Positions 41,947-62,658 of a stretch of 64,000 nt of DNA are shown piece by piece. Location: sequence record OL656110.1, one strand, 5' to 3'. The position numbers and the translations under genes are program-made. The notes under the pieces are model-generated. The model was not told the DNA's origin, did no database searches, and was given only the letters and a program-made list of their open reading frames with translations. The stretch's first letter is position 1, and each line of letters starts with the position of its first letter. The DNA comes from Escherichia phage vB_EcoM-RPN242.

Positions 41947-42265
41947 CCAACGGGAATCAAAACGGCTCGCGCGCGTTTAATTTATTCGAATATAACTCGC
42001 GAGGGGGCTGACGCCCTCGCTCGTAACACCGCCCTGTGCGGGCAGCACCATTCCACAGCCATGGAGGCTGCTTCTCGTTGTTCGTTGACACTCACAACTC
42101 GAAGGGCACTGCGTTAGGATACAGTTTCTTGATGTTGTAGAAAAGTAGTTTTTACCTATTAATAATCACTGTCATTATTTTATTGGTCATTCCTGTGTTT
42201 ATATTCAATAAACATACTCCCAATATAATAACGGAGACATTTAATCAATCCAGTGAGGCTCCGGA

Positions 42266-42835
42266 ATGCACATTAACACAGCAATCATGAAACACATTAT
42301 TCCTTTGTTAGCAAAATACGAAGGGGAACGCGCCACGAATATCCCTTTTGAAACAATCACCGATGAAGTGAAACGCCTGACAGGTAAAAGTATCAATTTC
42401 CGTCGCGTTATTGAATCTGCGTTAGAGTTGGCCCGTTCTGATTTACGAAATCCAACATTTTCATTTAATATTGACATAACTTCTTCACTTCGACAAGAAT
42501 TGGAAGAATCATCACAAGCACGGCGCAATCGCTTCCGTCATTTATATGTTCGTAACGAATTCTCTGAAGGTCGTGTTGGTATGAAACTGGAGTCTATTCG
42601 TTCTGACATTTGCTTCACTGTCAACTACGTTTTAGAGCCAGAAAGTGGGCGCATTTATTTTGGCGCGATTATCGGTTTCTATGGGAACTCTATTAATGGT
42701 TGGGCTGAACGCGTTGGATTAAAAGAAACCCAGAACACTCATTCCACACCTTCTACCCATTATATGACGCATGAAGCTGCTGGTGAATATGTTTACATTC
42801 TGCGTCGTATTGTGAAGTTAGAAGTGTTAAAATAA
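42266..42835 (+). CDS. hypothetical protein, 189 aa
   Basis: First plus-strand gene after the divergent region; GTGAGG upstream. Confidence 0.55.
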   Translation: MHINTAIMKHIIPLLAKYEGERATNIPFETITDEVKRLTGKSINFRRVIESALELARSDLRNPTFSFNIDITSSLRQELEESSQARRNRFRHLYVRNEFSEGRVGMKLESIRSDICFTVNYVLEPESGRIYFGAIIGFYGNSINGWAERVGLKETQNTHSTPSTHYMTHEAAGEYVYILRRIVKLEVLK

Positions 42836-42892
42836 CGCTTTATTCAATAAATAATTGCAGTAAAGTTAGTTGCATGGAAGGGAGGGAACACT

Positions 42893-43039
42893 ATGTTTTA
42901 CATGATGTTACTCCTCATCCTCCTGATCGGGATTACCTTTACTCTCCTGGGTCTACCCGATCAGTCCGGTAAACAGTCGCCCACTTCGGCGCATCCGGTT
43001 TTGTGTGAAGGTTCGTCCGCACTGCTGTGGGCAGTGTAG
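42893..43039 (+). CDS. small hydrophobic membrane protein, 48 aa
   Basis: Strong ribosome-binding site GGAAGGGAGGG; MFYMMLLLILLIGITFTLLGLP... Below the track length cut-off. Confidence 0.4.
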   Translation: MFYMMLLLILLIGITFTLLGLPDQSGKQSPTSAHPVLCEGSSALLWAV

Positions 43040-44864
43040 CTCAAAGAGGAGAGGACTTTTCAAATTAGCTGGGCTGCAGTAAAGTATTAAGCGTGAGGCG
43101 AACAACGCATCGAGTTAGGCATCTAAAGCCGACCTCGCTAATCCCAGTCTCAGGGGCATGCGTGAATAGAGGCGTGATATCCACCTTGCATGGTGTCAGT
43201 GGACGCACTTGACCGTCGGAGAACGAAACTCCCTGTTGTAGCGTGATTAGCTCAGAATCAGAGAGCACCCCGTTGGCAAGTCGACACCAACACAAGGGGA
43301 GGTCGGGGGCGCTAATCTCCATCACGCCGACAACATTATGAGTCTTCCATAGAGGGTTCATAATGTTGCGTCAAAGGGCAACAAGGTTCCTGTTGGTTGA
43401 ATTAACTTGATTCATAGTTCCTACTGATCTTCCCGGATTCGAAGGATCACCAACAGGCGAGGCCGGATGCGTAAGTTCCGGTAAATCGATGGTAACGCCC
43501 TCGCCAACAAAAATAAAAGGTTTTATCAATAACGGGTTACAAAGTATAGTTAACCCACTGAAGCGAAAAGCTGTTTGGGCATTAGACAAACACTTCGATG
43601 TGAACCCAGGACATGGTGTCTTGTGCTCAAACAGGTTTTCGTTTTCGTTGTGCGTGACTTTGCGGGTTTTTAGAAACTGACCAAGCAAATAACTGCTAAT
43701 GATTCCGAAGTTCTGATGGCGGCGTAACAGCCTATAAGTCAGTGAGGTCTTCCGATTCCTCATCACCAAATTCGGCGCACTAAAATAGACGGGAGGGTGT
43801 GATTAATAATCTCCCGTCGACAATGCCGTTATATCTGACTGTCCAAAGGGGATAAGCTCCTGAGTAAGCAGAGGTGGGTTGCCTAAGTCAGATGGGATGT
43901 AAGGTCAGCGCTGGCCAAGCATTTGGGTTCGACTCCTAAAAACGGCTCCACATCTTTGAGGATATTCTCACGAGTATCTTGAAAGATGTGAGCGAAGTCT
44001 TGCCATCAGCCCTGATCCCTGGCAGGTGAAGGGCACACAAATCGAAGTGTCTTGACAATTTATCTTAAACCCAAAGGTTGATCTAGAAATTGGGCGGCCA
44101 ATCCGGTGGACGATAACAGCATATTGGGCCATACTGTTGAGTCAGGGCACTTCGATTTGTGAACTTGAGAGAGCATTGGGTGAAATAGACCATGCCTTGC
44201 AGATTGCGATGTCTACACATTCCGGACACTGGTGGACACCAAGAAGAACTCAGTAGCAGACGAGCCATCAGGGTTAGCTACCCGGCGCGGCGAGGACTGG
44301 GAGGCCGAACTAAGGGGAAACCCGAGACAGGCGTAGTATTCTCAAGTTCACAAAATGAAGAGCATTAAAGAACTCGCAAAGGACCTGAAATTGGTATCCC
44401 TGGCTTGTACCACTGAGTGTTCTTCATCTTTGGGTGATTCTATGTTGCCGGGCTATCAACCCATGCTTGCTGGAGCAACCAGCGGCTCTGAATCAACCAG
44501 CCAGCCTCGTTTGGTCCGAGCGTTAGAGGACAAGTTGCTTCTACATGGAAGTTGCGAGTTGCGACATTGGTTGCAACTTTGATGGCTCTGGATTTTATAA
44601 ACCATGTCTATGGGTGACGCGGGATCTTTAGTACCAGAGCTATCAAAGTTGTGTCCAACCCGATCTTACAAGCCCGTATCCCGGTCTGGTTAAGACTTGT
44701 AAGTGGAAAGCCCTGGAAAAATAAACGCCTGTGGCGAGGCTATGGTGCAAGCCAAAGACTCACAGAAGCGCATGCCGTGAGGCAGCACAAAGAGGCATGC
44801 ATGAACTGATCATGCACAAACGGGATAAAGGGTTGACAGTCCTTGGTCGGACACACAATAATTT

Positions 44865-44941
44865 GGTCCTGTAGCTCAGTGGTAAGTAGCAGTGAACTCA
44901 TAATTCATTGGTCGTTGGTTCAAATCCAACCAGGATCACCA
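44865..44941 (+). tRNA. tRNA with CAU anticodon (Met or Ile2)
   Basis: Hand-folded cloverleaf: acceptor GGTCCTG/CAGGATC, anticodon loop CTCATAA, T-arm GTTGG-TTCAAAT-CCAAC, encoded CCA. Confidence 0.75.
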
Positions 44942-45193
44942 TGTTAAGGGGTGTGAAACATGACACTCCGACAAACACAGTAAGCGTTGCAGTCAGCTGT
45001 GTATAAAATGGGGTGACTCCGCATCGGAAACGATGCCCCAACTTCCAGAAATGGTCGGGCGCAAAGCCTGTAAAGTTCCAGGAGATCGAACCAGAAGGCA
45101 CTGGTCGCCAGTTAACCAATCGGCGCTGAGAAGCGCGGGGAGTTGGGCTACGGCAGATCAAATGCTCAATCGGGTGTGAAGCCCGTCCAAATT

Positions 45194-45282
45194 GGAAGGT
45201 TGCCCGAGATGTTTAAGGGACTCGACTGCTAATCGAGTGGGGCTTTTAGCCCCCGAAGGTTCGAATCCTTCACCTTCCGCCA
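45194..45282 (+). tRNA. tRNA-Ser (GCU) with long variable arm
   Basis: Acceptor GGAAGGT/ACCTTCC, anticodon stem CTCGA/TCGAG with loop CTGCTAA, variable arm GGGGCTTTTAGCCCC, T-arm GAAGG-TTCGAAT-CCTTC, CCA. Confidence 0.75.
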
Positions 45283-45498
45283 AATTACGGGCGTGACTTC
45301 CTGAAGAGTTAGAAGATGTGCATGTCGACTCTCTCGTAATCGGGTGTTTAGGAAGTTAAGAAAATCGCGGCGAGGATAGTGAAATGCAAATAGCTTTCTC
45401 TACGTCGACGACTTCAGGTTCGACTCCTGACGCGCTCTCCCATAGGGTAGTACCAGTGCAAGCGTGTAGTCTTTCAACCCATCCCATCGATGTGGTGT

Positions 45499-45528
45499 AG
45501 CCGGATATCCTATCCGGCTTTCTTTTTA
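45499..45528 (+). terminator. rho-independent terminator after the tRNA region
   Basis: Hairpin GCCGGATATCCTATCCGGC followed by TTTCTTTTTA. Confidence 0.7.
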
Positions 45529-45651
45529 TCCCTGTCTTATTATCTTCTTATCGACCCAAGCATGTCCTCCTTTATCATAGTTTGTTCAATGATACAAAGG
45601 GGGTTTAAAATTTAACCGTTAACCCCCTATCATAGATTTGAGGATACACCA

Positions 45652-46320
45652 ATGCGTAATGTTTCTATCTGGGAATTGAACGAAGTGATTTCCCATGACA
45701 CCCCTCCAATTGTCAGACTCTTCCGATACAAGGGTGTCAAGCGTACTCTGAATGAGTTCCTGTCGCCTGTTTACGTCTACCGTGATGGCGGGTTCTTCCG
45801 CCGCGATAAAAACATCCCGAACCTTGGTATGACGTTTGATTTGAGTATCAAAGGCCAGGTTGTATTGATGGGTTATGATAGCCTGGAACAATCTGAGAAA
45901 GGCCAGGGCGCTCCACTTATGGTCTTCGGTTCGTTTGAACAAGCCGTGCACTGGCTGATCAGAAACGGATATGATTTCTATGGCGAAGAAAGCGCCAATT
46001 GGCGTCGTCGCAAGGTCAAGTCTGTTGATTTCTACGCAGAGCGCAAGAAATACCTGGATATCGCTCATCAGTATGAGCAGTCTAAGAAATCCGTTCTAAT
46101 CAAACCATGCGTTACGGTCGGTGAAGAAGTGGGTGTCGTGGATAATTCCGATTTGAATCAGGCAATTAAATCTTTGAATCCAACTCCTCCGGTCAGTCGT
46201 GTTCTGAATGATCAGGGTGCTCCGGCCAAGCATGACAGTTCTATTCCGGTCCCCCAATCGGAGAAACCAGCGGAGCACAAATCGTTCTTCCGTCGCTTGC
46301 TGGACTTCCTGACCAAGTAA
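45652..46320 (+). CDS. hypothetical protein, 222 aa
   Basis: ATG with GAGGA upstream. Confidence 0.55.
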   Translation: MRNVSIWELNEVISHDTPPIVRLFRYKGVKRTLNEFLSPVYVYRDGGFFRRDKNIPNLGMTFDLSIKGQVVLMGYDSLEQSEKGQGAPLMVFGSFEQAVHWLIRNGYDFYGEESANWRRRKVKSVDFYAERKKYLDIAHQYEQSKKSVLIKPCVTVGEEVGVVDNSDLNQAIKSLNPTPPVSRVLNDQGAPAKHDSSIPVPQSEKPAEHKSFFRRLLDFLTK

Positions 46321-46389
46321 GACGAGATTCTCCTTTTCTATACTCCTGTAGATACGCTATGATAAGCCAATGTCTACAGGAGAAATAGA

Positions 46390-47664
46390 ATGAACAAATT
46401 CGCTGCACAACCCCTCGCTCCATATATCCCGTTCCGCACGTATATCCCGTTCCACACGTTAGGGAAAGGTCCATATAAAACGATTTTTGATGTCCTCTCT
46501 CTTCATCGTGAACATATTCACTGGGAAGACTACCTCTACAAACACACTCCGTGTGAACTCGTCGCCAACCCCGAAACTAACCAGCAGGTCTGGTTCAAGC
46601 GTGAAGATTACTTCGCGCCGCTATCTTGTTATATGAATGGCAAGCAGGGCATCAATGGCAGTAAGTTGCGCCAGGCCATCTGGTTGATGGTTGAGCACCT
46701 GAAGACCGGAGGCTCCCCTGACATCATCCATGGTACTGTCGTTGGTAGTCCGCAGTCCCCTATGGCGACGGCAGTCTCTCGGCACTTCGGCGGCAAGACA
46801 ACCACTGTACTCGGAGCGACCAAACCCACCACCTGTATGAACCACGACATGGTGGCAATGTCAGCCTGGTTTGGTAGTGAGTTCAACTTCGTCGGCTCGG
46901 GTTACAACAGCACGATCCAGCCGCGCTGTAAGAAGTTGATCGAACAACAGAATCCAAAGGCGTATTATCTGGAATATGGTATCACCCTCGACCACACAGC
47001 GCATTCTCCTGAGCGCATCGCTGGCTTCCATATGCTGGGTGGCGAGCAGGTTGCCAACATCCCTGACCATATTACCGATCTGATTATCCCAGCCGGATCC
47101 TGCAACTCTTGCACAAGCATCCTGACCGGGCTGGCAATGCATCCGAAGCCTAATCTGAAGCGTGTGTATCTGATTGGCATCGGTCCTAACCGCCTTGACT
47201 TTATCGAGAGCCGTCTGCGCATCATCGGCAAACATGCCAATCTGCCGCACATTGTCGACTTCACCCGTCGCTATCACGACAACCCAGACTATGTACACGG
47301 CAAGAAGGAGCTTCAGCATGCCTCTAAGAGCGTTTCGCTGGCTGGCCTCCTAAGTGGTATCAGGCAGAAGGAAGAGCCAGAGGTCGTGCTTCCTCGCTTT
47401 GAGGTACACCATTGGGATCTTCATACCACTAATTGGGTTCGTTACAATGATCTGATGGAATATCAGTGGGGTGATATTGAGTTGCATCCTCGCTATGAAG
47501 GCAAGGTCATGACCTGGGTTCAACAACACAAGCCCGAGTTGCTCAACGAGAACACCCTGTTCTGGATTGTGGGTAGCAAGCCATACATCGAGCCGATGAA
47601 GGCAGCATGCCCTGAGCTGGCTATCCCTGAAACAGTTCCTGTAAACGACTTCACCCCTTCCTGA
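46390..47664 (+). CDS. putative PLP-dependent enzyme (fold-type II, ACC-deaminase/D-cysteine-desulfhydrase-like)
   Basis: 424 aa; GINGSKLRQ resembles the GGNKxRK PLP-lysine loop and GSPQSP the Gly-rich phosphate loop; AGGAG upstream. Confidence 0.45.
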   Translation: MNKFAAQPLAPYIPFRTYIPFHTLGKGPYKTIFDVLSLHREHIHWEDYLYKHTPCELVANPETNQQVWFKREDYFAPLSCYMNGKQGINGSKLRQAIWLMVEHLKTGGSPDIIHGTVVGSPQSPMATAVSRHFGGKTTTVLGATKPTTCMNHDMVAMSAWFGSEFNFVGSGYNSTIQPRCKKLIEQQNPKAYYLEYGITLDHTAHSPERIAGFHMLGGEQVANIPDHITDLIIPAGSCNSCTSILTGLAMHPKPNLKRVYLIGIGPNRLDFIESRLRIIGKHANLPHIVDFTRRYHDNPDYVHGKKELQHASKSVSLAGLLSGIRQKEEPEVVLPRFEVHHWDLHTTNWVRYNDLMEYQWGDIELHPRYEGKVMTWVQQHKPELLNENTLFWIVGSKPYIEPMKAACPELAIPETVPVNDFTPS

Positions 47665-47670
47665 TCCATC

Positions 47671-47681
47671 CTAAATACCCC
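47671..47681 (+). promoter_or_regulatory. late promoter CTAAATACCCC with inverted repeat, plus strand
   Basis: CTAAATACCCCATGCAAACCAGTGTGGGGTATTT-ATG. Confidence 0.6.
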
Positions 47682-47704
47682 ATGCAAACCAGTGTGGGGT
47701 ATTT

Positions 47705-48169: not shown

Positions 48170-48177
48170 ATACCCCC
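48166..48177 (+). promoter_or_regulatory. late promoter CTAAATACCCCC
   Basis: The TAA stop of the upstream gene is embedded in the motif; GAGGAA then ATG at 48206. Confidence 0.55.
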
Positions 48178-48205
48178 ATATGGCTAACCCACTGAGGAAC
48201 CTAAC

Positions 48206-49596: not shown

Positions 49597-49691
49597 GATG
49601 TATTTCCTTCTCTTCAGATTGTTGTTTGTTCGTACTACAATTAGAAGTATACGCCAGTTATTGAAGAAGTAAACTTTATTCAATAAATATT

Positions 49692-50519: not shown

Positions 50520-50598
50520 AATAAACTCCTTGGTCAATGAATGGCTCTATGGTTAAATATGCCCACGTGCTAACGGCACGGATAACCTGGAGAATTAC

Positions 50599-52016
50599 AT
50601 GACCGTCTTCTATACGAACGTTGCCCGCCGGGGCAATGACCTGTTGATTCGAATCGCAGATGACATGGGTAATCGCCGTCTGTTGAAAAAGAAATTCGAA
50701 CCCACTCTCTATTTACCCACGGCTGATTATTCAAATGTTGAAAAGGTCGGCCTGCTCAACGAACCCCTGGTCTCCAAGAAGTTCCCTGACATGCGCACTG
50801 CTGACAACTACCTTGAAGAGTACAAGGAAGTCCAGGGTGCAGCCATTTACGGGCAGACCGATTATGCATACCAGTTCATCGCCCATAGCTTTCCTGGAAA
50901 GATTGAGCCGGATTACTCCAACATCCATATTGCTAACCTCGATATCGAAGTGTTCTCCGCCGGGTGGAAAGATGGAAAGATGACCAAAGGTCCATTCCCT
51001 CACCCAACCATTGAGCAGCAGACGTTCAAAGGGAATGAGGCGCGCATTCGCCGCTTCCATCAGCAGGTACTGGCCAACCATGACTTCATCCGTGAGCACT
51101 TTCCCAGTTCCTTTATCAGCAACAACGTCACTGATCAGTTCCCTATCATTGACAGCAACGGTAAGATCACCCAAGACATGAATGCGGCGTTCCCCATTAC
51201 CCTGATCCAGCTTCAGGACATGGCGACCAATAAGTTCATGGTGTGGGGTATGCCGTGCGCGAAGGATCGTGCGAAGTTCAGATACGATCCAGAAGACGCG
51301 GAGATCGGTGGACTTGAGGTGGAGTACAAGGAGTTTGTCACCGAGCAGGATCTGCTGCGATCTTTCCTTGACTTCTGGTCACAGCGTCAGTTCGACGGCT
51401 GGACAGGCTGGAACATTGAGACGTTTGATAGCCCTTATCTTGTTGAGCGCATGAATCAGGTTCTGGGTGAGGCTGAAACGTCGCGCCTCAGTCCTTGGGG
51501 TATCATTAAGAAGCGTATCATTCGCGATAAGAAGGGCGATATCACGACGTATCAGTTCGTGGGTTGCCCTATGCTCGATTATATGCAGATCTACAAGAAA
51601 CACACGTACACCACCCGTGAACGCTACTCTCTTGACTGGATTGCGTATTGTGAGCTGGGTGAGAAGAAGATGGACTACAGTGAGAGCAAGTCGCTCTTTG
51701 ATCTGTACTTCAACGACTACTGCAAACACACCCGATATGGTATCAAAGACGTTAAGCTGGTATGGCGACTTGAACAGAAGCTGCGCCTGCTCCAGCTGAT
51801 GTTCGTCCTGGCCTACCGCACCAAGTCCAACTATGAGGACGGCCTGGGTACTGTGGCTCCGTGGCTGGCCATGTGCTATTATCGCCTGTATGAGAAGGGG
51901 ATAGTGCCTAAGATCCAGCGTGTATACGATGGTCCGACCGACTTTGAGGGTGCATACGTCATGGATGTGACACCAGGAATCTACTTCTGGGTCTTCTCTG
52001 AGGACTTGAACTCCCT
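50599..52016 (+). CDS. DNA polymerase, family B, exon 1 (N-terminal and exonuclease region up to motif A)
   Basis: N-terminus MTVFYTNVARRGNDLLIRI... resembles T4 gp43; frame ends at ...SEDLNSL, the first half of motif A. Confidence 0.85.
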
Positions 52017-53199
52017 TAAGTTAGCAGCATAGGGGCTTTGGTTGGCGACAACCATCGAATAACTCTCTTAATTGCTGGGAAGTCTCTTTAGAGATAATCA
52101 GCAGCCAAGGTCGGCCACGAAGACCTAAATACTCTGTAACCACGGTGAAGGAGTAAGGTCATGAAGGAAATCAAGAGTCTGTTCTATCGAAATGATTTGG
52201 TAATTGAAGAATCTAAGATAGAAGAATATTTGAAGTTCTGTAAGGAACACAGTTATGATGGTGATGGATACAGTGAACGCCATCATATACTGCCTCAGGC
52301 GCATTATCCTGAGTTCTCTAAAGAAGAATGGAACATTGTAAACCTGTTATATAAAGATCATGTAGAGGCTCATCGCCTGTTGCATGAAGCATTACCAGAA
52401 GATAAATCAGCGTTCTTCGCCTACTTCATGATGAAATCCCATAACGGGGAACTAAGTGAGGAATTGAGAAGAAAGAATGTTGAAATGCTGACGGGAGAGG
52501 GAAATCCTTCGAAGAGGGAAGATGTCAGAAGAAAGATATCCAAATCTAAGAAGGGTGTTAGAAGAGCAGATATGAAGGGTAAGGCTTATTTCGGCGCTGA
52601 TAAAGAAACAGCTGAAAGAATTAAAGCCAATTCCAGTCTTGTTCACAAAGGCACTGTCCCCGTAAGACTCCTGGATGGTAGTGTTATCAAAGTTTCAACG
52701 CAAGACCCGAGATATTTGAGTGGTGAGTTGAAATGTATAATAGGTGCAAAGAAAGGTCAGGTGGGACCAAACACCGACCCAAAAGCGAAGAAGAAATTTA
52801 AAGATTCTTTAGAGAAAAGGAAGGAAATGTTTGCCAGAATGAGTGGGGAAGAAATAACCACTCATTGCTTGACACAACAGGATTTAGGTAAGAAGACTGT
52901 AGAGTGGGGCAAGTTGGCAAGAAACTTCAAACGACTCTTTGGTTACGCTGGGTTAAACCCAGATGATTTCCTTGAAGTAGTGGGTGACAAGGTTCAACGA
53001 CTATCGAAAGCAAGACCGACGACTAAGCGTCTGATCTGAAGCGAGTAGAGTAGGGGCAAGCGCCTCGAAATGGAGAGAATCTCTAGACAGTTCTGGAGAT
53101 TGTGATATAGTCTGGCCTGTATGGTGACATACAGCAGTGTTCGGTAAACTGAATGACGAACACGGGGGATGAAATAGCGAGCATCCCTGAACATAAGCG
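52017..53199 (+). mobile_element. group I intron carrying an HNH homing endonuclease gene
   Basis: R-like element GTTCAACGACTA at 52992-53003 and S-like GATATAGTC at 53104-53112; 5' exon ends in U, intron ends in G; splicing gives DLNSL|YPHIIQQYNLGPETI. Confidence 0.7.
52161..53039 (+). CDS. HNH homing endonuclease (intron-encoded)
   Basis: ERHHILPQ...NIVNLLYKDHVEAHRLLHE is an HNH motif; GGAG upstream; 3' end overlaps the intron core. Confidence 0.8.
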   Translation: MKEIKSLFYRNDLVIEESKIEEYLKFCKEHSYDGDGYSERHHILPQAHYPEFSKEEWNIVNLLYKDHVEAHRLLHEALPEDKSAFFAYFMMKSHNGELSEELRRKNVEMLTGEGNPSKREDVRRKISKSKKGVRRADMKGKAYFGADKETAERIKANSSLVHKGTVPVRLLDGSVIKVSTQDPRYLSGELKCIIGAKKGQVGPNTDPKAKKKFKDSLEKRKEMFARMSGEEITTHCLTQQDLGKKTVEWGKLARNFKRLFGYAGLNPDDFLEVVGDKVQRLSKARPTTKRLI

Positions 53200-54781
53200 A
53201 TATCCACACATCATTCAGCAATACAACCTCGGTCCAGAGACTATCGTTGGCGACAAACACCAGCGCCGCGAGATTATTGAGGCTATGTGTGAAGAGCTGG
53301 CTGCTCAGATGAATAACATGGCAACGCCGATGCACAAACGTCGGTTGATGAAAGCCCTTCACGACAAGCTGTTGCGTGCGGTTGACGAACGCCTGCAGGT
53401 TGTTGATGAGTTGGTTGCCCTGGGTGAGTTCCACTTTGAAACCCTGCGCCGCTACAACGTGTCGTTCACGCCGAACGTTCAATTCTTCAGCAACGAGAAG
53501 ATGTCGTTCCTGTCTGAAATCATGCGTGGTATCTACAGCGACCGTAAAGTAGAGAAGGCCAAGGGTCTGAAGTATGAGCAGTGGGCTGGCTGGTGTAAAG
53601 AGATGTCGAAGGGCGACTTCCATCTTGAGTCTGCCATGAAGTCTCGCTACTATGACCCAGAGTGGTATGAAGAGCACAAGAACATTGATCTTGATGCCCT
53701 GACCGAAGTGATGAAGAAGTGGGAAGACCTGGGCGTCGCTCAAGATACCCTACAGCAAGGTCTGAAGATCTTGATGAACGCAGGTTATGGCGCTATCTCA
53801 AACGTCTGGTTCAAAGAGTACTTCAACCTCAACATTGCCGAAGCCATCACCACATCCGGTCAGCTGATCAACAAGTGGAACAAGCGTTACACTGATGACT
53901 ATCTGAACAAGCTGTGTGGTACAACAGGCCAGGACTTCGTCATCGCAGGGGATACCGACTCCAACTACATCTGTATTGAGCGTCTTGTCAAGCAGTTGTG
54001 GCCTGATGTTACTGACCATCATGCTATGGTTGATAATATCGACCAATGGATCAAAGACAACTACCAGCCGAAGACCAATGAGTGGGCACAGCTTCTGTGT
54101 AACACCATGAACGGATTTGAACAGCGCATGGTGTGGGAGCGTGAGGTCATTGCGTCAGCCGCTGTCTGGCGAGCCAAGAAGATGTATGCCATGGCCGTGT
54201 ACGACAGTGAGGGTATCAAGTATGAGAAGCCGAAGATCAAGTTCAAAGGTCTGGAAGCCCGCAAGTCCACCACGCCGGAATGGTGTCGTGAGCGCCTTGT
54301 CAAGTGCTATGAGAAGATCCTACTCGGCACCGAAGAGGAAGTACAGACGCTCATCTCCCAGTACAAAGAGGAGTATATGAAACTCTCTGTAGACGATATC
54401 GCCAAGGCGTCAGGCGTGTCCGACATAGAGAAGTGTGTGGCTGCTGACGGATCGTTTATATCTGGTGCTCATTTTGCTGCCAAGGCGTGTGTGGGCTACA
54501 ACCGTCTGGTTGAGAAGAACGAAGATCTGGGTCTACCGATGATCGAGTCGGGTGATAAGGTACAGATGGTGTTGTTGAAGCCGGGCAACCCGTTTGGGCA
54601 GAACTACTTTGCATATCCTGAGTTCTTCCCAGAGGAGCTTGGTCTGGGCAAATGGGTGGATTATCAGGCGGCCTTTGAGAAGTCCTTCATTGATCCGATT
54701 CAGTCTATCCTCGACGTGGTCGGCTGGTCACACAAGCGCCGTGTGAACCTTCTTGCCATGATGCAAAAGAAGAAAGGTTGA
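53200..54781 (+). CDS. DNA polymerase, family B, exon 2 (motif A second half, motif C, thumb)
   Basis: Begins ...YPHIIQQYNLGPETI; contains VIAGDTDSNYI (motif C). The track's ATG at 53153 lies inside the intron. Confidence 0.85.
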
Positions 54782-54843
54782 TTCAATAAACCAAAGGGGG
54801 ATATAATTCCCCCTGTTAACCCTTTGACAAACAGGTGATTGAA

Positions 54844-55185
54844 ATGAAACTCAATAAGATTCTTCTGGTGTGCGCTCTGGCTTTCTCTACCACTGCGTGT
54901 TCCACCCTTCTGGACGTTGCGTCTACTGTAGACCTTGACGCGCCGACGTTCACCAATGAGCAGGCCGTGTCCAAGATGGAAGACACCATCAAGGCGCATG
55001 CAGCACTGGACAACACTACCCCAGGTCCGCTCCAAACTGTCTGCAACTATGACGATTCCATCCAGGAAGACGAAACTTACCACTGCATCACCTACGTGAA
55101 GCAGGCCTCCGTCGTTCTGTATGCAGATTGTACCGAAGAACAGTGTGTTGCTACAGGCTACGATAAAGTTGAGGAAGACAAATGA
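54844..55185 (+). CDS. putative lipoprotein, about 113 aa
   Basis: MKLNKILLVCALAFSTTAC signal peptide with lipobox-like TTAC; AGGTGA upstream; track start is a GTG at 54835. Confidence 0.5.
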   Translation: MKLNKILLVCALAFSTTACSTLLDVASTVDLDAPTFTNEQAVSKMEDTIKAHAALDNTTPGPLQTVCNYDDSIQEDETYHCITYVKQASVVLYADCTEEQCVATGYDKVEEDK

Positions 55186-55970: not shown

Positions 55971-56276
55971 GTGCAAGAACAATCCAAGTTTGGGGAAACC
56001 CCAGACAAGCGTTCCGGTGATAGCGACATGGATAGCGTGATTAACCATGTGAACAACTTCATTCGCCAGCAGGAGACTCCAACTCCTATCGGTGCAGCCA
56101 AGGCTCTTCATGATGTACTGGTGAAGATCGGCCAGCGCTCTGAAGCGGATGAAATCTTCTATAACTTCGACGACCAGTATAAAGTTAAGTTTGAAGAGAA
56201 TGGCTGCCCACAGGTTGCTGTGTTCTGGGCACCTTGGCTGGGCGGCGTGAGCTGGCGTATTGAGGATGCTGTGTAA
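55971..56276 (+). CDS. hypothetical protein, 101 aa
   Basis: GTG start with strong AGGAGG 6 nt upstream. Confidence 0.5.
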   Translation: MQEQSKFGETPDKRSGDSDMDSVINHVNNFIRQQETPTPIGAAKALHDVLVKIGQRSEADEIFYNFDDQYKVKFEENGCPQVAVFWAPWLGGVSWRIEDAV

Positions 56277-57860: not shown

Positions 57861-57862
57861 TC

Positions 57863-58060
57863 ATGAAACGGTTGTCTAATTATCTGTTGTTCATTGGTCT
57901 GGTTATGGCAGCCGTTTCAATGTGTACTGCCCTAGCCTATCATTTCACCCCTCTGGACTTAACAACCTCAGAGAAGTTGAACGTGACTGTGATGTACTGT
58001 ATTGGCGCGGTGATGTCTATCGGCGCTGCTGGTTACAAAATATTCAAGGAACCAAAATGA
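57863..58060 (+). CDS. small two-helix membrane protein, 65 aa
   Basis: ATG at 57863 with AAGGGGTG upstream; two hydrophobic segments. Confidence 0.45.
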   Translation: MKRLSNYLLFIGLVMAAVSMCTALAYHFTPLDLTTSEKLNVTVMYCIGAVMSIGAAGYKIFKEPK

Positions 58061-58434
58061 AAATTCAAATCCCTCGCGATGCTGTGGCTGTTGCGATCGA
58101 CTACACCGGAAACGCCAAGCACATTACTGCCGTGCGCCTGATTCCTGAAAAGAACTGCGTCATCCCTCAGTTCCAGCTGAATGCCAATCCGTCGTCCAAA
58201 GACTTCGGAAAGTGGTTGCAGGCTGCTCCGTTCCGTACCCAGACGAACGCTCAGATGTTCATCTCGGGTAAGACCCACACTGCAGCCCGTCTGTGGTTCG
58301 TGACCGCTGACCGTCGCTTTGTCGATATGTGGGAACGTCCGATGGGGTTCGTGAAGCCGGAAGATATTCAGCTGGCTCCTGAGCCTGAAGCTGTGGCTCC
58401 TGAAGAGGAAGCGAAAGATGCATCATTTATCTAA
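58057..58434 (+). CDS. hypothetical protein, about 125 aa
   Basis: ATGA overlap with the upstream stop; track ORF 57922..58434 is over-extended. Confidence 0.45.
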   Translation: MKIQIPRDAVAVAIDYTGNAKHITAVRLIPEKNCVIPQFQLNANPSSKDFGKWLQAAPFRTQTNAQMFISGKTHTAARLWFVTADRRFVDMWERPMGFVKPEDIQLAPEPEAVAPEEEAKDASFI

Positions 58435-59644
58435 AATGCCGACGGGCTATACGCCTCCGGCTGAATGGAAGTACCCGATTGACCTGGCTGTTGATTATCG
58501 CAAGCCTGAGAATCGCATGTACTTGCTCAAGGCTTGGGTGGAGGCGCTGTCCTACACAGAAGAGCACAACCAGCAGATGCGTCTGATGGACTATGCGATC
58601 GAAGTCACTGAAGGCATCAGCCTCGAACAGAAAGTCGAGCGCAAGATCTGGATGGCATTCCTGTGGGGTTGTTGCTATAACGCCGTCGGGCCGTGGACGA
58701 TCTACAGTGAGTTCCCTGTGCCGCCTCAGTCTAAGGAAGAGATGCAGCGCTTCTCTGATTGGTATAATCTGAACTTTGAACGCATGCGATTCGATACCGA
58801 CTGTCGCTACCGCAAGTCCAAGATGATCCCGTGTGTTCAGTCCTATATTGACTGGCTGGCTGGCCGTACTCAATATGACGCTTTCCGTGGGATGTTGGTG
58901 TGCATCGATAAGACAGAACAATTCACCCAGCTGTGGGACACGGCGATGTCCTGGAAATACTTCGGTCGCCTGAGCGCCTGGAACTTCCTGGAAGCCCTGA
59001 ACATGGTATTCGGAAACGAATACACCATTGACGTCCCTGGCTTCATGCTGCGTGATCGTGATGGAAGCGAGTCCAACCGTAATGGCGCGGCGTTCTTGTC
59101 CAACCGTGACGATTGGGTGACTAAACACGGGAAGAAAAAGATCAACGGTTGTCCTATCACGGATGAAGAGTGTGACATCCTTGAGGCTGACCTTGAGCAG
59201 GCGTTCCAGGATTGTGTGGCTGAGTTCGGGCACCTGACGTTCATCAACCGTCTGAACTTTGAAACCTCCGGTGCTTGTTGGCTGAAGAAATTCTTCCGAC
59301 TGAAGAATACCCGTTACATCGGGTGGGACGCAGAGCGTACCTGGGATGAGATAGACTACATGGAACGCGTCTGGCCTGAATACTCCTGCGCAGCGCTCTG
59401 GGAAGCCCGTTCGCTCTGGCTGCCAGATACCCTGTTGTGCGAAAAGGCTCCTGCAGGGCACGTTCCAGGCGTCCAGAAGTGGAAGATGCCTGTGTTCTTT
59501 GAGACTGGTGTTCCTCTGCACATCTGGCATCTGCAAAAGGGTACGCGTTGGGAGCCTGACCAGGTGTATCGAGAATTGGGTAAACCGAAGATTGATAAAC
59601 CGAAGTCCAACAGCGTCAACCTCATGGCACTCTTGAAACGCTGA
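58418..59644 (+). CDS. hypothetical 408-aa protein, candidate base-modifying transferase by context
   Basis: GAGGAAG upstream; no motif recognised by eye; assignment rests on neighbourhood with the kinase only. Confidence 0.5.
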   Translation: MHHLSKMPTGYTPPAEWKYPIDLAVDYRKPENRMYLLKAWVEALSYTEEHNQQMRLMDYAIEVTEGISLEQKVERKIWMAFLWGCCYNAVGPWTIYSEFPVPPQSKEEMQRFSDWYNLNFERMRFDTDCRYRKSKMIPCVQSYIDWLAGRTQYDAFRGMLVCIDKTEQFTQLWDTAMSWKYFGRLSAWNFLEALNMVFGNEYTIDVPGFMLRDRDGSESNRNGAAFLSNRDDWVTKHGKKKINGCPITDEECDILEADLEQAFQDCVAEFGHLTFINRLNFETSGACWLKKFFRLKNTRYIGWDAERTWDEIDYMERVWPEYSCAALWEARSLWLPDTLLCEKAPAGHVPGVQKWKMPVFFETGVPLHIWHLQKGTRWEPDQVYRELGKPKIDKPKSNSVNLMALLKR

Positions 59645-59680
59645 TATAAATATCCTCGCCTATAAAGTGAGGATATTATC

Positions 59681-59848
59681 ATGTTACAAGATCTGCTGGT
59701 TTATGCGCTTCCTGGCGTGGTTGTCGGCTTCGTAGCTGGCGCTCTGGTATTCCGCAAACACGCGCAAGACGGTGAAGTGATTGTTCAGAAGGGTAAAGAC
59801 ATCCTGGAACAAATCGAAGCCAAACTGGAAGAGCTGAAGAAAAAGTAA
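59681..59848 (+). CDS. small membrane protein, 55 aa
   Basis: MLQDLLVYALPGVVVGFVAGALVFRK...; ribosome-binding site GAGGA lies inside an 8-bp inverted repeat ATATCCTC/GAGGATAT. Confidence 0.4.
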   Translation: MLQDLLVYALPGVVVGFVAGALVFRKHAQDGEVIVQKGKDILEQIEAKLEELKKK

Positions 59849-59875
59849 TCTGATTGCGATTGCGTTCTTCAATAA

Positions 59876-59916
59876 AGGGGAATGGGTTAATATTAGCCCG
59901 TTCCCCTTTCTTTTTG
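59876..59916 (+). terminator. rho-independent terminator
   Basis: AGGGGAATGGG...CCCGTTCCCCT followed by TTCTTTTTG; preceded by the TTCTTCAATAAA motif. Confidence 0.7.
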
Positions 59917-59930
59917 CAAGGAAATACATC

Positions 59931-60143
59931 ATGGCAATGCAACGAATTGAAGATATGTCCCTACTGGATATGGAAGCGACTTTTGGTGATTACTTTGAGT
60001 CCACTCCGAAACAAAAAGACCCTCTGGTTGGCCGTCTGGTGGTTTCTGAAGCGTTCGCACAGAAAGTTCGCGAAGGTCTTCCACCTGAATATGGGTGCTT
60101 CCGTAATGGCGCTTCCGTTATCGTCATGGGTGAATCTAAATGA
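59931..60143 (+). CDS. hypothetical protein, 70 aa
   Basis: AAGGAAA upstream. Confidence 0.5.
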   Translation: MAMQRIEDMSLLDMEATFGDYFESTPKQKDPLVGRLVVSEAFAQKVREGLPPEYGCFRNGASVIVMGESK

Positions 60144-60526
60144 CACAGTCCGAATACAAACAGTACCTGTACGATCTGTTCATGAAAGAAACGGATGGTA
60201 CACTCCACCCTAAGAAAGCCACTATCGTCTTGCTGTATTCACAAGGTGCCCTGTCATTCTCCTATCTTTTCAAAGAATTGGATCTGATGGGCATTGAATA
60301 TAAAAAGCACATTACGCCAGAACGCACTCTGAAGCGCGCAATCGCTCACTGCGTCCACTCGGTGGCGACTGTTATGTTCCGCCATCACATTACATTCGAT
60401 GAAGCTCTTGACCCACAGTATCACGAAGAGCGTTGGGATCTGTTGTTAAAGAACGGTGCCAAGCCTGAGCACAAAGATCAACTCCTTGGGATGACCAAGG
60501 CGCAACTCGTGGATGGTGTGTTATGA
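60140..60526 (+). CDS. hypothetical protein, 128 aa
   Basis: ATGA overlap with the upstream stop. Confidence 0.5.
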   Translation: MTQSEYKQYLYDLFMKETDGTLHPKKATIVLLYSQGALSFSYLFKELDLMGIEYKKHITPERTLKRAIAHCVHSVATVMFRHHITFDEALDPQYHEERWDLLLKNGAKPEHKDQLLGMTKAQLVDGVL

Positions 60527-61635
60527 TCTATCTCCTGTTTGGTGTGCCATTGATACTGGCCATCCTGTTTGTGGTCTACCACCGCAAGACCCATGAGCCG
60601 AAAGAGACTCTGATTGCGACGGCGATTGTGGTGGTGCTATCCTGTCTGATTCAGGTCGGGGCTTATGCTGCGTTCTCCCTCGGCAGTTCAGGGGACGTTG
60701 AGATACTGAACGGGTACGTCACTGCAAAGGAACGGAATAAGGTGAGCTGTGAGCATTCATATGAATGTATGTGCTATTACACAACATCTTGTACAGGTTC
60801 AGGAAATAACCGATCTTGTACACAAACGCGTCATTGCAGCACATGCTATGAGCACTCTTATGACGTTGATTGGGATGTATTAACAACCGTCGGTGATCTG
60901 AGCATTGACCGTATTGATCGTCAGGGTACTACAGAGCCTCCGCGTTGGACACAAGTTAAAATCGGGGAACCTGCGGCACGTGAACATTCATATATGAATT
61001 ATGTGCTGGGTAACAAAGACTCTCTGTTCTCTCGTTCAGACCAGCAGTTTGCTGAGCGCTTCAAAGACAAGATTCCGAAGTATCCCGAAGTCTATGACTA
61101 CTATCGTGTCACTCGTGTACTGAATGTGTCTGGTCTGGCGTTACCGACCACATACTGGAACGATTATCTGAACAATACTCTGAAAACATTAGGTGCTTCA
61201 CGTCAGGTCAATATCGTCTGGGTTGTGACTTCCGGCCAGCCAGTTGAATACTTCCAGGGCTTGGTCTATGCTTGGGATGGTGGTAAAAAGAACGACGTTA
61301 TCGTCGTGACCGACATCAGCAAAGACCTGAAGATCAACTGGGGTAAGAGCACTTCGTTCGCTGATGGTATGCATAACCGTGAACTCCACTCTCGCAATGG
61401 TATGGCTCTCACAGGACACGACATGGGTGTCGGTGTCATGGCTGATGTTGTCGCTAACATCACCAAAGGCTACAACCGCGTTGAGATGAAGGAAATGGAG
61501 TACCTGAAGTGGCGGGAACTCAAGACCTGGGAAGTTGTGATTGTTGTTCTGCTAGGCTGTCTGCCGTTCACCGCAATTTTCATATTACAGCGAATGGAGT
61601 ACAATGGTGGTCGTCGTTATCCGTTTAATTTTTAA
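60523..61635 (+). CDS. Cys-rich integral membrane protein, 370 aa
   Basis: N- and C-terminal hydrophobic segments; Cys cluster CEHSYECMCYYTTSCTGSGNNRSCTQTRHCSTCYEHSY. Confidence 0.55.
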   Translation: MIYLLFGVPLILAILFVVYHRKTHEPKETLIATAIVVVLSCLIQVGAYAAFSLGSSGDVEILNGYVTAKERNKVSCEHSYECMCYYTTSCTGSGNNRSCTQTRHCSTCYEHSYDVDWDVLTTVGDLSIDRIDRQGTTEPPRWTQVKIGEPAAREHSYMNYVLGNKDSLFSRSDQQFAERFKDKIPKYPEVYDYYRVTRVLNVSGLALPTTYWNDYLNNTLKTLGASRQVNIVWVVTSGQPVEYFQGLVYAWDGGKKNDVIVVTDISKDLKINWGKSTSFADGMHNRELHSRNGMALTGHDMGVGVMADVVANITKGYNRVEMKEMEYLKWRELKTWEVVIVVLLGCLPFTAIFILQRMEYNGGRRYPFNF

Positions 61636-61653
61636 TCAAAAGAGGAAGTAAGA

Positions 61654-62223
61654 ATGTCTCAATCTAAGGGTATCGCAACAGGTTGGATAGTTGGTTTGGC
61701 TTTGCTGGGTATAGTGATTCTCGGCATCAGTACAGTCATCAGCTACTTCAACGACTTCAACCGCACTGAGCAGCAGGTCAAGAAGTTCAACAAAGACTCC
61801 GAGAACTACCTGAGCAACTACACGCTCAAAGTTCAGGAGACGGCGCAGATTCCTGACATGTATAAAGACGGCCTGAAGGAAGTGATCAAAGGCACGTTCG
61901 AAGGGCGTTATGGCGCTGATGGTTCCAAGGCCGTCATGCAGTGGATCCAGGAGCAGAATATTCAGTTCGATTCCAGCCTGTACAAAGAGATCCAGGTGGT
62001 GATCAGTTCTGGGCGTGATGAATTCCGCATCAGCCAGACCAAGAAGCTGGATATCTGCACAATATACGAAACCAAGCTGGCTCAGTTCCCTGGTTCGTTG
62101 ATTGCTGGCATGTTCGGCTACCCGCGCATCGACCTTGACAAGACCTGCCAAGTGGTGAGTGATACCCGTACCCAGGCCGCGTTCGACGCTGGTATTCAGA
62201 AACCGATTAACTTCAAAGGCTGA
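61654..62223 (+). CDS. LemA-family-like membrane protein
   Basis: N-terminal hydrophobic segment; C-terminal YETKLAQFPGSLIAGMFGYPRID resembles the LemA C-terminal motif; AAGAGGAAG upstream. Confidence 0.45.
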   Translation: MSQSKGIATGWIVGLALLGIVILGISTVISYFNDFNRTEQQVKKFNKDSENYLSNYTLKVQETAQIPDMYKDGLKEVIKGTFEGRYGADGSKAVMQWIQEQNIQFDSSLYKEIQVVISSGRDEFRISQTKKLDICTIYETKLAQFPGSLIAGMFGYPRIDLDKTCQVVSDTRTQAAFDAGIQKPINFKG

Positions 62224-62227
62224 TGTC

Positions 62228-62641
62228 ATGAGCGTGAAACTCACTGAATCCCTGACACTGGACCAACAGCAGGCTCTGTTGGATGAGGTGGTGATCTCTG
62301 CTATCAAGCAAGGGATTATCAAAGACGACATGTTGATTGACCGCCCCGAGATGATCCATCATCTGGTGGTGTGCCTGGGTGAGGCCAGCAACCCTCGCAA
62401 GAAGATCGTGCTGTTTACTGATGGTGTGATCCTTCCGAGCGGGAAATGTGCGTTCTTGGATGTGGTTGAACATCCGAACACGAAAGGCAAAGAGGTCAAG
62501 ACTTCTGTTCCGGTGACTCCATACACTGAGGGTGTTGACCAGCTGTCTTGGTTTGAGACAATCAACACCATTTATGTGATGACACCGGACGGTAAACCAG
62601 TTCGGGATCTACGAGGCGGCAAAGTAGAATCTGAAGACTAA
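62228..62641 (+). CDS. hypothetical protein, 137 aa
   Basis: ATG at 62228 just past the upstream stop; track ORF starts earlier in-frame. Confidence 0.45.
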   Translation: MSVKLTESLTLDQQQALLDEVVISAIKQGIIKDDMLIDRPEMIHHLVVCLGEASNPRKKIVLFTDGVILPSGKCAFLDVVEHPNTKGKEVKTSVPVTPYTEGVDQLSWFETINTIYVMTPDGKPVRDLRGGKVESED

Positions 62642-62658
62642 TCGTTCTTCAATAAAAG

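Follow-up and report, generated by a model that had tools for sequence, protein, structure and literature searches.

The DNA analysed here, referred to as the window, is a stretch of 64,000 nucleotides from Escherichia phage vB_EcoM-RPN242 (OL656110.1), an Ackermannviridae phage with about 97% identity to Escherichia phage A221, the closest complete genome. We compared it with the whole genomes of A221, CBA120 and LIMEstone1 and with 50 kb of Serratia phage phiMAM1. A preliminary description had reported a 9-mer, TTCAATAAA, at least seven times in the window, always between genes and against a chance expectation below one. An exact search bears this out, as seven copies were found (4516 on the minus strand; 42204, 42843, 49679, 54782, 59868 and 62648 on the plus strand), all seven outside called ORFs, where 0.60 would be expected and none of 100 dinucleotide shuffles reached seven. 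The copy at 54782 begins with the first base past the DNA polymerase stop codon. What is conserved at the core is an 8-mer, TTCAATAA, of which the window has 12 copies versus 2.56 expected, 10 of them intergenic. The earlier list of sites was correct but incomplete, since the core adds intergenic copies at 5538, 5798 and 49658, all on the minus strand; the first of these had been missed because its box ends in C.

The motif is also much rarer inside coding regions when a full genome is considered, and the equal frequency that would have spoken against it is not seen. In A221, the 9-mer occurs 13 times in intergenic and once in coding sequence, and the 8-mer 24 times in 16.4 kb of intergenic sequence versus 7 times in 137 kb of coding sequence. 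The ratio of intergenic to coding density of TTCAATAA is 30 in the window, 27 in A221, 20 in CBA120, 16 in LIMEstone1 and 42 in phiMAM1, an enrichment that matches that of the late-promoter core CTAAATA, and once terminator 8-mers are set aside TTCAATAA ranks top among the intergenic 8-mers of A221. No box enrichment was seen in a distant Vibrio relative. About 80% of the intergenic boxes face the downstream gene (9 of 10 in the window, 19 of 24 in A221, 24 of 30 in CBA120 and 17 of 20 in LIMEstone1). The genes that follow are replication genes, nucleotide-metabolism genes and small genes of unknown function, while structural genes carry CTAAATA; the late-type motifs (TATAAATA or CTAAATA) form a separate set upstream of the structural genes, and the box is not a T4-type late promoter.

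Table 1. Box-containing elements of the window (positions in the 64,000-nucleotide stretch; N12, 12-bp spacer)
Type	Position	Strand	Elements	Hairpin	Downstream	Related phages
Class B	4505..4546	-	Upstream box variant TTCAATAT 4546-4539; -35 TTTAAT 4532-4527; spacer box TTCAATAA 4524-4517; -10 TATACT 4510-4505	ACGGGG/CCCCGT, -35 and box in loop	Conserved leader CATAAGCAGCACAACAC...GAAGGAACTAT	LIMEstone1 orthologue 94269-94297, annotated 'putative early promoter'
Class A	5503..5546	-	TTCAATAA-N12-TATTAT 5545-5520; one copy of 44-nt direct repeat	No hairpin with T-run	48 nt before ATG of 74-aa ORF 5489-5265	
Class A	5763..5806	-	TTCAATAA-N12-TATTAT 5805-5780; second copy of 44-nt repeat	No hairpin with T-run	47 nt before ATG of 66-aa ORF 5750-5550	Cassette and its ORF absent from orthologous position in LIMEstone1
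Class A	42204..42229	+	Box TTCAATAA 42204-42211; 12-bp spacer; TATAAT 42224-42229	None	ATG at 42266, 54 nt on	CBA120 orthologue 133395: box, N12 and TATAAT kept, spacer wholly different
Palindromic box	42839..42851	+	13-bp TTTATTCAATAAA; weak -10-like TAAAGT 10 bp downstream		About 42 nt before small conserved ORF starting near 42893	Sequence conserved in CBA120 (134036)
Class B	49646..49687	-	Palindromic upstream box 49675-49687 (the 49679 copy); -35 TTTACT 49673-49668; spacer box TTCAATAA 49665-49658; -10 TATACT 49651-49646		Putative promoter, would drive gene 49596-49288	Conserved in A221 and CBA120; homologous LIMEstone1 module annotated 'putative early promoter'
Class A	54782..54814	+	TTCAATAA-N12-TATAAT right after DNA polymerase stop	AGGGGGA/TCCCCCT, 54795-54814, TATAAT as loop; dG -14.1, z -5.1; no T-run	ATG at 54844, 54 nt past box end	Conserved in LIMEstone1 and CBA120; phiMAM1 positional equivalent has other sequence, equal layout
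Class A + intrinsic terminator	59868..59918	+	TTCAATAA-N12-TAATAT	16-bp stem 59874-59909 tipped by hexamer, then CTTTTT; dG -25.8, z -8.1	ATG at 59931, 55 nt past box end	
Class A + intrinsic terminator	62648..62695	+	TTCAATAA-N12-TATTAT	Hexamer at tip; stem, then T-run; dG -21.6, z -7.6		Kept in A221, LIMEstone1 and CBA120, downstream sequence diverges; in LIMEstone1 the hexamer is annotated 'putative promoter' inside a terminator

The seven copies of the 9-mer had been taken as one kind of site, a picture that has to be replaced by at least two putative promoter architectures (Table 1). Four of them are class A boxes and one is the spacer box of a class B promoter; the remaining two are palindromic, one lying upstream of the minus-strand class B promoter and the other accompanied by a weak -10 only. 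Class A is defined as TTCAATAA-N12-TAWWAT and has six window copies versus 0.00 expected, although several cassettes of both classes are paralogues and the independent sites are fewer than the raw counts. At the six sites a TATAAT, TATTAT or TAATAT hexamer stands 12 bp past the box. The N12 spacing forms a sharp peak (7 of 24 sites in A221, 8 of 30 in CBA120 and 3 of 20 in LIMEstone1), with a minor peak at N6, and at most sites the start codon follows 46-56 nt past the end of the box. All that 18 non-redundant N12 sites have in common is ttnTTCAATAAa-N11-TATaAT, a consensus built with a -10 filter that imposes A at -11 and T at -7. Between orthologues the spacers diverge but box and hexamer are retained, and non-homologous sites of phiMAM1 are laid out alike; one of them, downstream of the DNA polymerase gene, likewise has its -10 in a hairpin loop.

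Class B has the form of a T4-type early promoter, TTTACT-N16/17-TATACT, with one box in the spacer and a second one, often a palindrome, some 21 bp upstream. Distances between the two boxes of a pair range from 16 to 32 bp, mostly 20-22 bp, and their orientation is direct or inverted. The two window examples share with T4-type early promoters (GTTTAC variant of the -35, extended conservation) a TTTACT or TTTAAT element, a 16-17 bp spacing and TATACT, but differ from them by the invariant TTCAATAA in the spacer and by the second box upstream, neither of which is known to be part of the T4 early consensus. Three copies had been called near-palindromic in the preliminary description. Two are indeed exact 13-bp palindromes, TTTATTCAATAAA, at 42839 and 49675, while the copy at 42204 reads TTTATATTCAATAAA; the form CGCTTTATTCAATAAA, shared with the box at 42839, precedes an HU-like gene in A221, CBA120 and LIMEstone1.

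These palindromes, together with the pairing of boxes at class B promoters, could suggest that the box serves a phage regulator (a repressor or timing switch) as its operator, overlapping promoters without being needed for initiation. The offset between box and -10 is also variable, since N6, N8, N10-14 and positions upstream of the -35 all occur, and at LIMEstone1 76068 the box overlaps a -10; in this respect the box behaves more like a transcription-factor site than like a core element. However, most boxes are single and non-palindromic, without a symmetric left half, and their strand orientation tracks the gene, a property not required of a symmetric operator. The N12 peak is moreover very sharp, and N12 sites have no other -35-like element, so that without the box they would be promoters with a -10 only. 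We regard such an operator as rather improbable.

We consider it probable that TTCAATAA(A) is a conserved upstream element of pre-late (early or middle) promoters in enterobacterial Ackermannviridae. Among the roles proposed earlier, that of a promoter element is the best supported, by the fixed N12 distance to the -10, the orientation, the distance to the start codon and the conservation of box and hexamer. The comparison establishes the enrichment, the orientation, the spacing, the placement before start codons, the hairpin architecture and a conservation that extends across genera; what we infer from this pattern is promoter activity, the timing class and the identity of the box reader. At class A sites, host RNA polymerase with sigma-70 would read the -10, and the box would stand in for the -35. 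The box spans approximately -32 to -25, overlapping the -35 position about 3 bp nearer the -10. There is no TTGACA-like hexamer at class A sites, where the 18-site consensus has nothing beyond tt at -35 and -34. The gap between TTCAAT and the -10 is 14 bp, which is too short for ordinary -35 recognition in sigma-70 promoters, and a reader must be postulated. This reader would most likely be a phage-encoded DNA-binding activator, comparable to the one that acts on the MotA box at middle promoters of T4; that the host enzyme itself contacts the box is less likely. At class B promoters, the factor that reads the class A box could also modulate or shut off transcription.

The principal competitor is that unmodified host RNA polymerase recognises the box by itself, in which case class A sites would be immediate-early promoters needing no phage protein; sigma-70 region 4 might tolerate the T-rich ttnTTCAAT, or alpha-CTD might bind the A/T-rich AATAAA. 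The -10 hexamers match sigma-70 excellently, positions -35 and -34 are mostly T, and the site at 54782 can be read as TTGATT-18-TATAAT, with 10 of 12 positions matching. The class A element at 42204, the first signal facing right in a divergent intergenic region, is also the sole one of the first rightward gene (42266) there. Furthermore, no activator homologue was found, as MotA_activ, MotCF and AsiA had no Pfam match at E<=0.01 in the approximately 110 of 142 unannotated A221 proteins of at most 300 aa that were scanned, and two modelled window proteins showed no resemblance to MotA. On the other hand, beyond the TT the -35 position has no similarity to TTGACA, the 14-bp distance of TTCAAT lies outside the functional spacer range, and host -35 or UP elements are under much looser constraint than an invariant 8-mer. 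Class B promoters of the same genomes carry a proper TTTACT -35 at 16-17 bp, and therefore the phage uses normal -35 elements when needed, whereas class A has a -10 without a -35. Recognition by the host enzyme alone is accordingly a reading that we hold to be unlikely, though well short of negligible.

The putative class A promoters are similar to the MotA-dependent middle promoters of T4. Both are bipartite, with a phage box near -30 that replaces the -35 about 12 bp upstream of a sigma-70 -10, both precede replication and nucleotide-metabolism genes, and both belong to T4-related genomes with late promoters of the gp55/gp33 type. In T4, a 9-bp box is centred near -30, 12 +/- 1 bp from the -10 (PMC4122927 and established knowledge). 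The two differ in sequence, the MotA box being (a/t)(a/t)(a/t)TGCTT(t/c)A while TTCAATAA has no TGCTT, and in distribution, given that the phage box described here also occurs in palindromic form and within the spacers of promoters that have a -35. They differ as well in gene content, since T4 encodes MotA and AsiA while no homologue was detected here (Pfam scan of about 110 A221 proteins; PMC3184105), although remote analogues may be present. The founding genome papers on ViI-like phages left early and middle promoters unidentified and noted the absence of the T4 MotA/AsiA machinery (PMC3184105, PMC3121705); the CBA120 paper in particular found early promoters not identifiable and MotA and AsiA absent (PMC3184105). 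A 2024 review of these phages (Ackermannviridae) mentions neither promoters nor transcription, and the LIMEstone1 record annotates a few box sites as 'putative promoter' by similarity to T4. Most likely, then, as judged from sequence, the box is a promoter element, in a variant of a known promoter design. If it needs a phage factor, these phages would have found, independently, another answer to the problem that sigma appropriation solves in T4. Since ViI-like phages are widely used in biocontrol, phage typing and reporter-phage engineering, ttnTTCAATAAa-N11-TATaAT would provide a testable map of about 15-25 candidate pre-late promoters per genome, which the class B and hairpin-embedded forms extend, and a bait sequence with which the missing regulator could be sought.

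Many class A sites are embedded in secondary structure. A strong hairpin with the hexamer in its loop was found at 16 of 44 class A sites, and about a third to half of the class A promoters may be nested in such GC-rich hairpins with the -10 as the loop. The loops are constrained to a TAnnnT hexamer, and this constraint acts at the DNA level. The stems show compensatory changes between orthologues (CATAG/CTATG versus CGTAG/CTACG, for example). The earlier observation that a longer form directly precedes terminator hairpins was confirmed at 59868 and 62648, where CGTTCTTCAATAAA(A)GGGGA is followed by a hairpin and a T-run. Like intrinsic (Rho-independent) terminators, 59874-59918 and 62652-62695 are GC-rich hairpins with T-runs, but with a -10 hexamer as the loop and the invariant box a fixed distance upstream.

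The box could accordingly be imagined as part of terminators or of RNA processing, either as an A-rich stem extension or as an RNase E-type site whose cleavage would leave a hairpin protecting the 5' end. The hairpins at 59868 and 62648 are strong terminators in which the box contributes its AAA to pairing with the T-run; in addition, the box is rich in A and U and stays unpaired immediately 5' of a stable stem. However, box and hexamer also occur without any hairpin (42204, A221 99859, CBA120 26049 and 133395), and half of the related hairpins lack a T-run (54782 and A221 97136, for example). Ordinary terminators in these genomes lack the box and have loops of the tetraloop type, nothing in an RNA hairpin calls for loops restricted to TAnnnT, and an Rfam search of these sites gave no match. 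The processing role that had been suggested thus fits badly with the hairpin-free sites and the loop constraint, and a terminator or processing function of the box appears extremely improbable.

As part of a promoter, the hairpin with its T-run would allow the same 40-50 nt to terminate upstream transcripts and to restart transcription; a transcript that starts within the cassette would be missing the 5' arm and thereby avoid being terminated. A bolder combination of these ideas, which we regard as speculative and on balance doubtful, is a MotA/AsiA-independent re-targeting in which a phage protein reads TTCAATAA at -30 and recruits sigma-70 RNA polymerase to -35-less promoters, the spacer box shuts early promoters off, and the -10 in the loop might act through cruciform extrusion. 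Extrusion would present the -10 single-stranded, and initiation would depend on supercoiling. If true, this would be a new structural promoter class and not mere overlapping terminators.

The compact terminator-promoter cassettes would punctuate early gene blocks and coincide with breakpoints in gene content. In this they recall the PeSL and PmSL cassettes of T4-like phages, which carry an early (TTTACW-N17-TAYWAT) or middle-type (box and TATTAT) promoter (Arbiol 2010, PMC2839356; Comeau 2014, PMC4122927). In both cases a short conserved module between genes brings together a stem-loop or terminator, a promoter, an SD and an ATG, both are repeated many times per genome around small variable ORFs and indel boundaries, and the class B consensus matches the T4/PST PeSL promoter consensus. 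In contrast to PST, where the stem-loop lies just upstream of the promoter, the stem encloses the class A -10 here, and the -35 and box at 4505-4546; the class A stem covers the spacer and the start-site region, and the box and the phage family differ. Such cassettes would be portable parts for engineering these phages and would explain the sites at which small accessory genes are swapped.

An alternative is that their primary role is recombinational, as portable, PeSL-like homology blocks for the gain, loss and exchange of small ORFs, kept by gene conversion. Homology blocks would leave unexplained both the fixed distance to the start codon and the non-homologous sites that have only box, spacing and hexamer in common, and recombination at regulatory cassettes can go along with promoter function as a secondary effect, as has been argued for PeSLs (PMC4122927); we therefore find a primarily recombinational role very improbable. 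The observations in its favour concern gene content. Seven of the nine window cassettes, a small sample from the window only, lie at sequence or synteny breakpoints. Copies of the 44-nt direct repeat precede both the 74-aa and the 66-aa ORF, and the latter is therefore bracketed by two cassettes. The cassette at 59868 is nearly identical in four genomes, while the ORF downstream of it exists in three unrelated versions.

All seven copies of the 9-mer TTCAATAAA listed in the preliminary description were recovered by exact search (see table), and all of them are intergenic according to the calls of a simple codon-usage gene caller, which placed 66 genes in the window; at 54782 the first base of the copy directly adjoins the stop codon of the DNA polymerase gene. 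Fewer than one copy had been expected by chance, and dinucleotide-preserving shuffles agree with this, giving an expectation of 0.60, with seven copies reached in 0 of 100 shuffles, which rules out chance or base composition as the source of the motif. The long form CGTTCTTCAATAAA(A)GGGGA does occur twice, each copy leading into a strong hairpin and then a T-run, and of the three near-palindromic copies claimed, two (42839-42851 and 49675-49687) match TTTATTCAATAAA exactly. What is conserved is the 8-mer TTCAATAA, hereafter the box, which is present in 12 copies in the window against 2.56 expected, 10 of the 12 being intergenic; copies at 5538, 5798 and 49658, all on the minus strand, had therefore been missed.

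The source phage belongs to the Ackermannviridae (ViI-like), subfamily Aglimvirinae; its DNA is 96-97% identical to that of Escherichia phage A221. At the protein level, its DNA polymerase is 100% identical to phage PC3 over the C-terminal part. Positions 1-42000 hold mainly structural and tailspike genes on the minus strand, and 42200-64000 hold plus-strand genes, namely two tRNAs, a split DNA polymerase and many small ORFs of no assigned function. We assembled the genomes of A221, CBA120 (Kuttervirus) and LIMEstone1 (Limestonevirus) from an annotated collection and complemented them with 50-kb stretches of two further phages, phiMAM1 of Serratia (Miltonvirus) and K387, a distant relative from Vibrio. 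According to the preliminary description, equal frequency inside coding regions would have refuted its reading of the motif; the frequencies are not equal, and intergenic/coding density ratios are high in the enterobacterial members: 30 in the window (10 intergenic and 2 coding copies), 27 in A221 (24 in 16.4 kb intergenic, 7 in 137 kb coding), 20 in CBA120 (30 and 14), 16 in LIMEstone1 (20 and 8) and 42 in the 50 kb of phiMAM1 (7 and 1). These ratios are on par with those of the late-promoter core CTAAATA, and the box is the top enriched intergenic 8-mer of A221 once terminator-stem 8-mers are set aside. About 80% of intergenic boxes are oriented toward the downstream gene. In the 50 kb of K387 examined, CTAAATA is still enriched but the box is not (2 intergenic and 8 coding copies, ratio 1.6).

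Every box was listed with its flanks, and a histogram of how far away the next good -10-like hexamer lies showed a sharp peak at 12 bp (intergenic boxes: 7 of 24 in A221, 8 of 30 in CBA120 and 3 of 20 in LIMEstone1), with a minor peak at 6 bp. A pattern search for TTCAATAA-N12-TAWWAT, which we call class A, found 6 copies in the window, where 0.00 are expected, four of the 6 coinciding with copies of the 9-mer. The 18 N12 sites left once orthologues and paralogues are removed have only ttnTTCAATAAa-N11-TATaAT in common, their spacers and both flanks being unrelated. At most class A sites the end of the box lies 46-56 nt from the start codon, which fits a promoter followed by a leader of ~25-30 nt. 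The box would then occupy positions of about -32 to -25; a TTGACA-like hexamer is absent, and TTCAAT and the -10 are separated by 14 bp, a distance too short for sigma-70 region 4. Class B is a putative promoter of T4 early type, TTTACT (or TTTAAT)-N16/17-TATACT, whose spacer carries a box 6 bp upstream of the -10. Another box, direct or inverted and often forming a 13-bp palindrome, lies ~21 bp upstream, and there is a conserved leader downstream (CATAAGCAGYACRACAC...GAAGGAACTA). Two of the three remaining 9-mer copies belong to class B promoters. At 4440-4505 (minus strand) the class B leader, CATAAGCAGCACAACACTGACTCTGAAATGAAGGAACTAT, has SD-like GAAGGA at its 3' end; it adjoins an ATG in CBA120 and LIMEstone1, and in the window and A221 the ORF behind it is replaced, the next gene being 160 nt away.

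Coordinates of box elements, late-promoter-like motifs and repeat blocks in the window
Feature	Position	Strand	Copy of TTCAATAAA	Details
Class A	42204	+	yes
Class A	54782	+	yes	hairpin dG -14.1, z -5.1; without T-run
Class A	59868	+	yes	hairpin dG -25.8, z -8.1; T-run; counts as intrinsic terminator
Class A	62648	+	yes	hairpin dG -21.6, z -7.6; T-run; counts as intrinsic terminator
Class A	5520-5545	-
Class A	5780-5805	-
Spacer box of class B promoter	4516	-	yes	promoter 4505-4546
Upstream palindromic box of class B promoter	49679	+	yes	minus-strand promoter 49646-49687
Palindromic box	42843	+	yes	weak hexamer only, TAAAGT at N10
CTAAATA(C/T)C(CC)	3360-3397, 32109-32226, 34777-34875, 38038-38089	-
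CTAAATA(C/T)C(CC)	47665-47704, 48170-48205	+
Tailspike repeat blocks	32109-32226 vs 34777-34875
Tailspike repeat blocks	ends of 26705-27155 vs 29382-29699

As far as sequence comparison can tell, the motif is real, looks functional and has been conserved among the enterobacterial members of the family, and the box is probably an upstream element of promoters. The reading we favour makes it the upstream half of putative early or middle (pre-late) promoters, often within hairpin/terminator cassettes. We infer use before late transcription because boxes precede replication genes, nucleotide-metabolism genes and small genes of no known function, because structural genes carry CTAAATA(C/T)C instead, and because the phages possess gp55 and gp33 genes for late transcription; PHROGs assigned a function to none of ten genes behind boxes. 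The geometry resembles that of T4 middle promoters, where a 9-bp MotA box is centred near -30, 12 +/- 1 bp from the -10; the box sequence differs, falling outside the MotA-box family, and MotA and AsiA were not detected here.

We consider it most likely that a phage-encoded protein would read the box in place of -35 recognition; at class B sites the same protein, at the spacer and upstream boxes, could turn early promoters off. The main weakness of this activator model is that no such reader was found in Pfam, PDB or modelling searches. Pfam scans of concatenated unannotated A221 proteins of <=300 aa (~110 of 142) gave no match to MotA_activ, MotCF or AsiA; the same scans did detect gp33 (Trans_coact), RegA and an HU-like protein. 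Three A221 candidates, early-promoter-driven or HTH-looking, had no match in relaxed Pfam and PDB-sequence scans, and of two window proteins behind box-containing promoters neither was predicted by modelling to be MotA-like. Host polymerase might instead read the box directly with no phage factor, which we regard as unlikely; within the promoter reading, the need for a phage factor is favoured. No convincing match of the motif to sigma-32-like, IHF, Fis or DnaA-box consensuses is known; TCAATAAAT may resemble TCGATAAATT, the H-NS high-affinity motif. K387, whose DNA polymerase is 48% identical, has a gene for a 600-aa 'RNA polymerase sigma factor' at 29806-31608, beside the polymerase gene. 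Together with the missing box enrichment, this suggests that its non-late transcription is organised otherwise, a correlative link that agrees with a lineage-specific solution.

When folded from the box past the hexamer, 16 of 44 class A sites gave a strong hairpin whose loop contains the -10-like hexamer, the stem spanning the spacer and the start-site region. As at 54782, the T-run is missing at the 5538 and 5798 hairpins. This design recurs in about eleven unrelated stem sequences, for example 3' of the phiMAM1 polymerase gene (GGGGGCGG-TATACT-AGCCCCC), and stems show compensatory changes between orthologues (CATAG/CTATG in A221 and CBA120 vs CGTAG/CTACG in LIMEstone1). No hairpin forms at some class A sites (42204 in the window, A221 99859, CBA120 26049 and 133395), so the box and hexamer pair is independent of the hairpin; the latter is an additional feature under selection. 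The simplest reading would be a composite terminator-promoter, in which transcripts arriving from upstream would form the hairpin, and those initiated a few bases past the loop would hold the 3' arm only and continue. As for known RNA families, Rfam at gathering thresholds gives only two tRNAs in the window.

The box is conserved across three genera and subfamilies, with copies in Aglimvirinae, Cvivirinae and Miltonvirus. We aligned the nine cassettes of the window, short intergenic modules carrying a box and a hexamer, with A221, CBA120 and LIMEstone1. At 42204 there are indels in the flanks and the spacer is wholly different in CBA120, yet box, N12 and TATAAT are kept. The 59868 cassette is near-identical in four genomes and is followed by three unrelated ORFs, and downstream sequence differs among genomes at the 4516, 62648, 5538 and 5798 cassettes too. 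A 44-nt direct repeat (91% identical) with a class A element lies on both sides of a 66-aa ORF (5550-5750). By our own count, made on the nine window cassettes only, 7 of 9 are at gene-content breakpoints.

Similar arrangements occur in T4-like phages: PmSLs combine a Mot box, TATTAT and a stem-loop, and the T4/PST promoter consensus of PeSLs, TTTACW-N17-TAYWAT, equals the class B consensus (PMC2839356, PMC4122927). PeSLs, PmSLs and our cassettes are all found at indel boundaries; however, the stem is upstream of the promoter there and encloses the -10 here. Promoter boxes specific to phages have precedents, as do composite regulatory cassettes, but the literature covered here describes neither this box nor its fixed geometry nor the placing of the -10 in a loop. 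The genome papers of ΦSboM-AG3, CBA120 and LIMEstone1 give only about eight sigma-70-like promoters or guesses from T4 similarity, the CBA120 authors found early promoters not identifiable (PMC3184105), and promoters go unmentioned in the 2024 family review. A few of these exact sites are labelled 'putative early', 'middle' or 'promoter' in the LIMEstone1 GenBank record, with the box unrecognised. Within our incomplete coverage of the literature, the box is nowhere described, and Ackermannviridae transcriptome or TSS data were not encountered. The proposed role of the box addresses a gap stated in the literature for a phage family of practical importance, and it is directly testable.

The CTAAATA core is 18-160 times denser in intergenic than in coding DNA in all five genomes, the Vibrio relative included. 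A late-promoter-like motif, CTAAATA(C/T)C(CC), is found 25-40 nt 5' of structural-gene start codons, and an inverted copy, GGGGTATTT, often adjoins the ATG, so that the leader could fold over the ribosome-binding region. Near-identical blocks of ~50-60 nt, comprising a late promoter and a terminator, are repeated between successive tailspike genes and could provide homology for swapping tailspike modules. At 50520-50598, the divergent region preceding the DNA polymerase gene, there is no TTCAATAA box; the region holds GGTTAAATATGCC, a late-like TAAATA annotated as a late promoter in LIMEstone1, which is odd ahead of a replication gene. The polymerase gene itself is in two parts (50599-52032 and 53153-54781), interrupted by a 292-aa ORF (52161-53039) that is preceded by late-promoter-like CCTAAATACTC; Rfam gave no group I intron match in this region at the gathering threshold, and the equivalent insertion in LIMEstone1 is annotated as an intron with a homing endonuclease. 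Finally, no ORF could be called with confidence in the 2.8 kb at 42836-45651, where just two tRNAs (Met and Ser) are present; in CBA120 the equivalent region carries four tRNAs together with an HNH endonuclease and small ORFs. The stretch in the window resembles a tRNA island that is variable or in decay.
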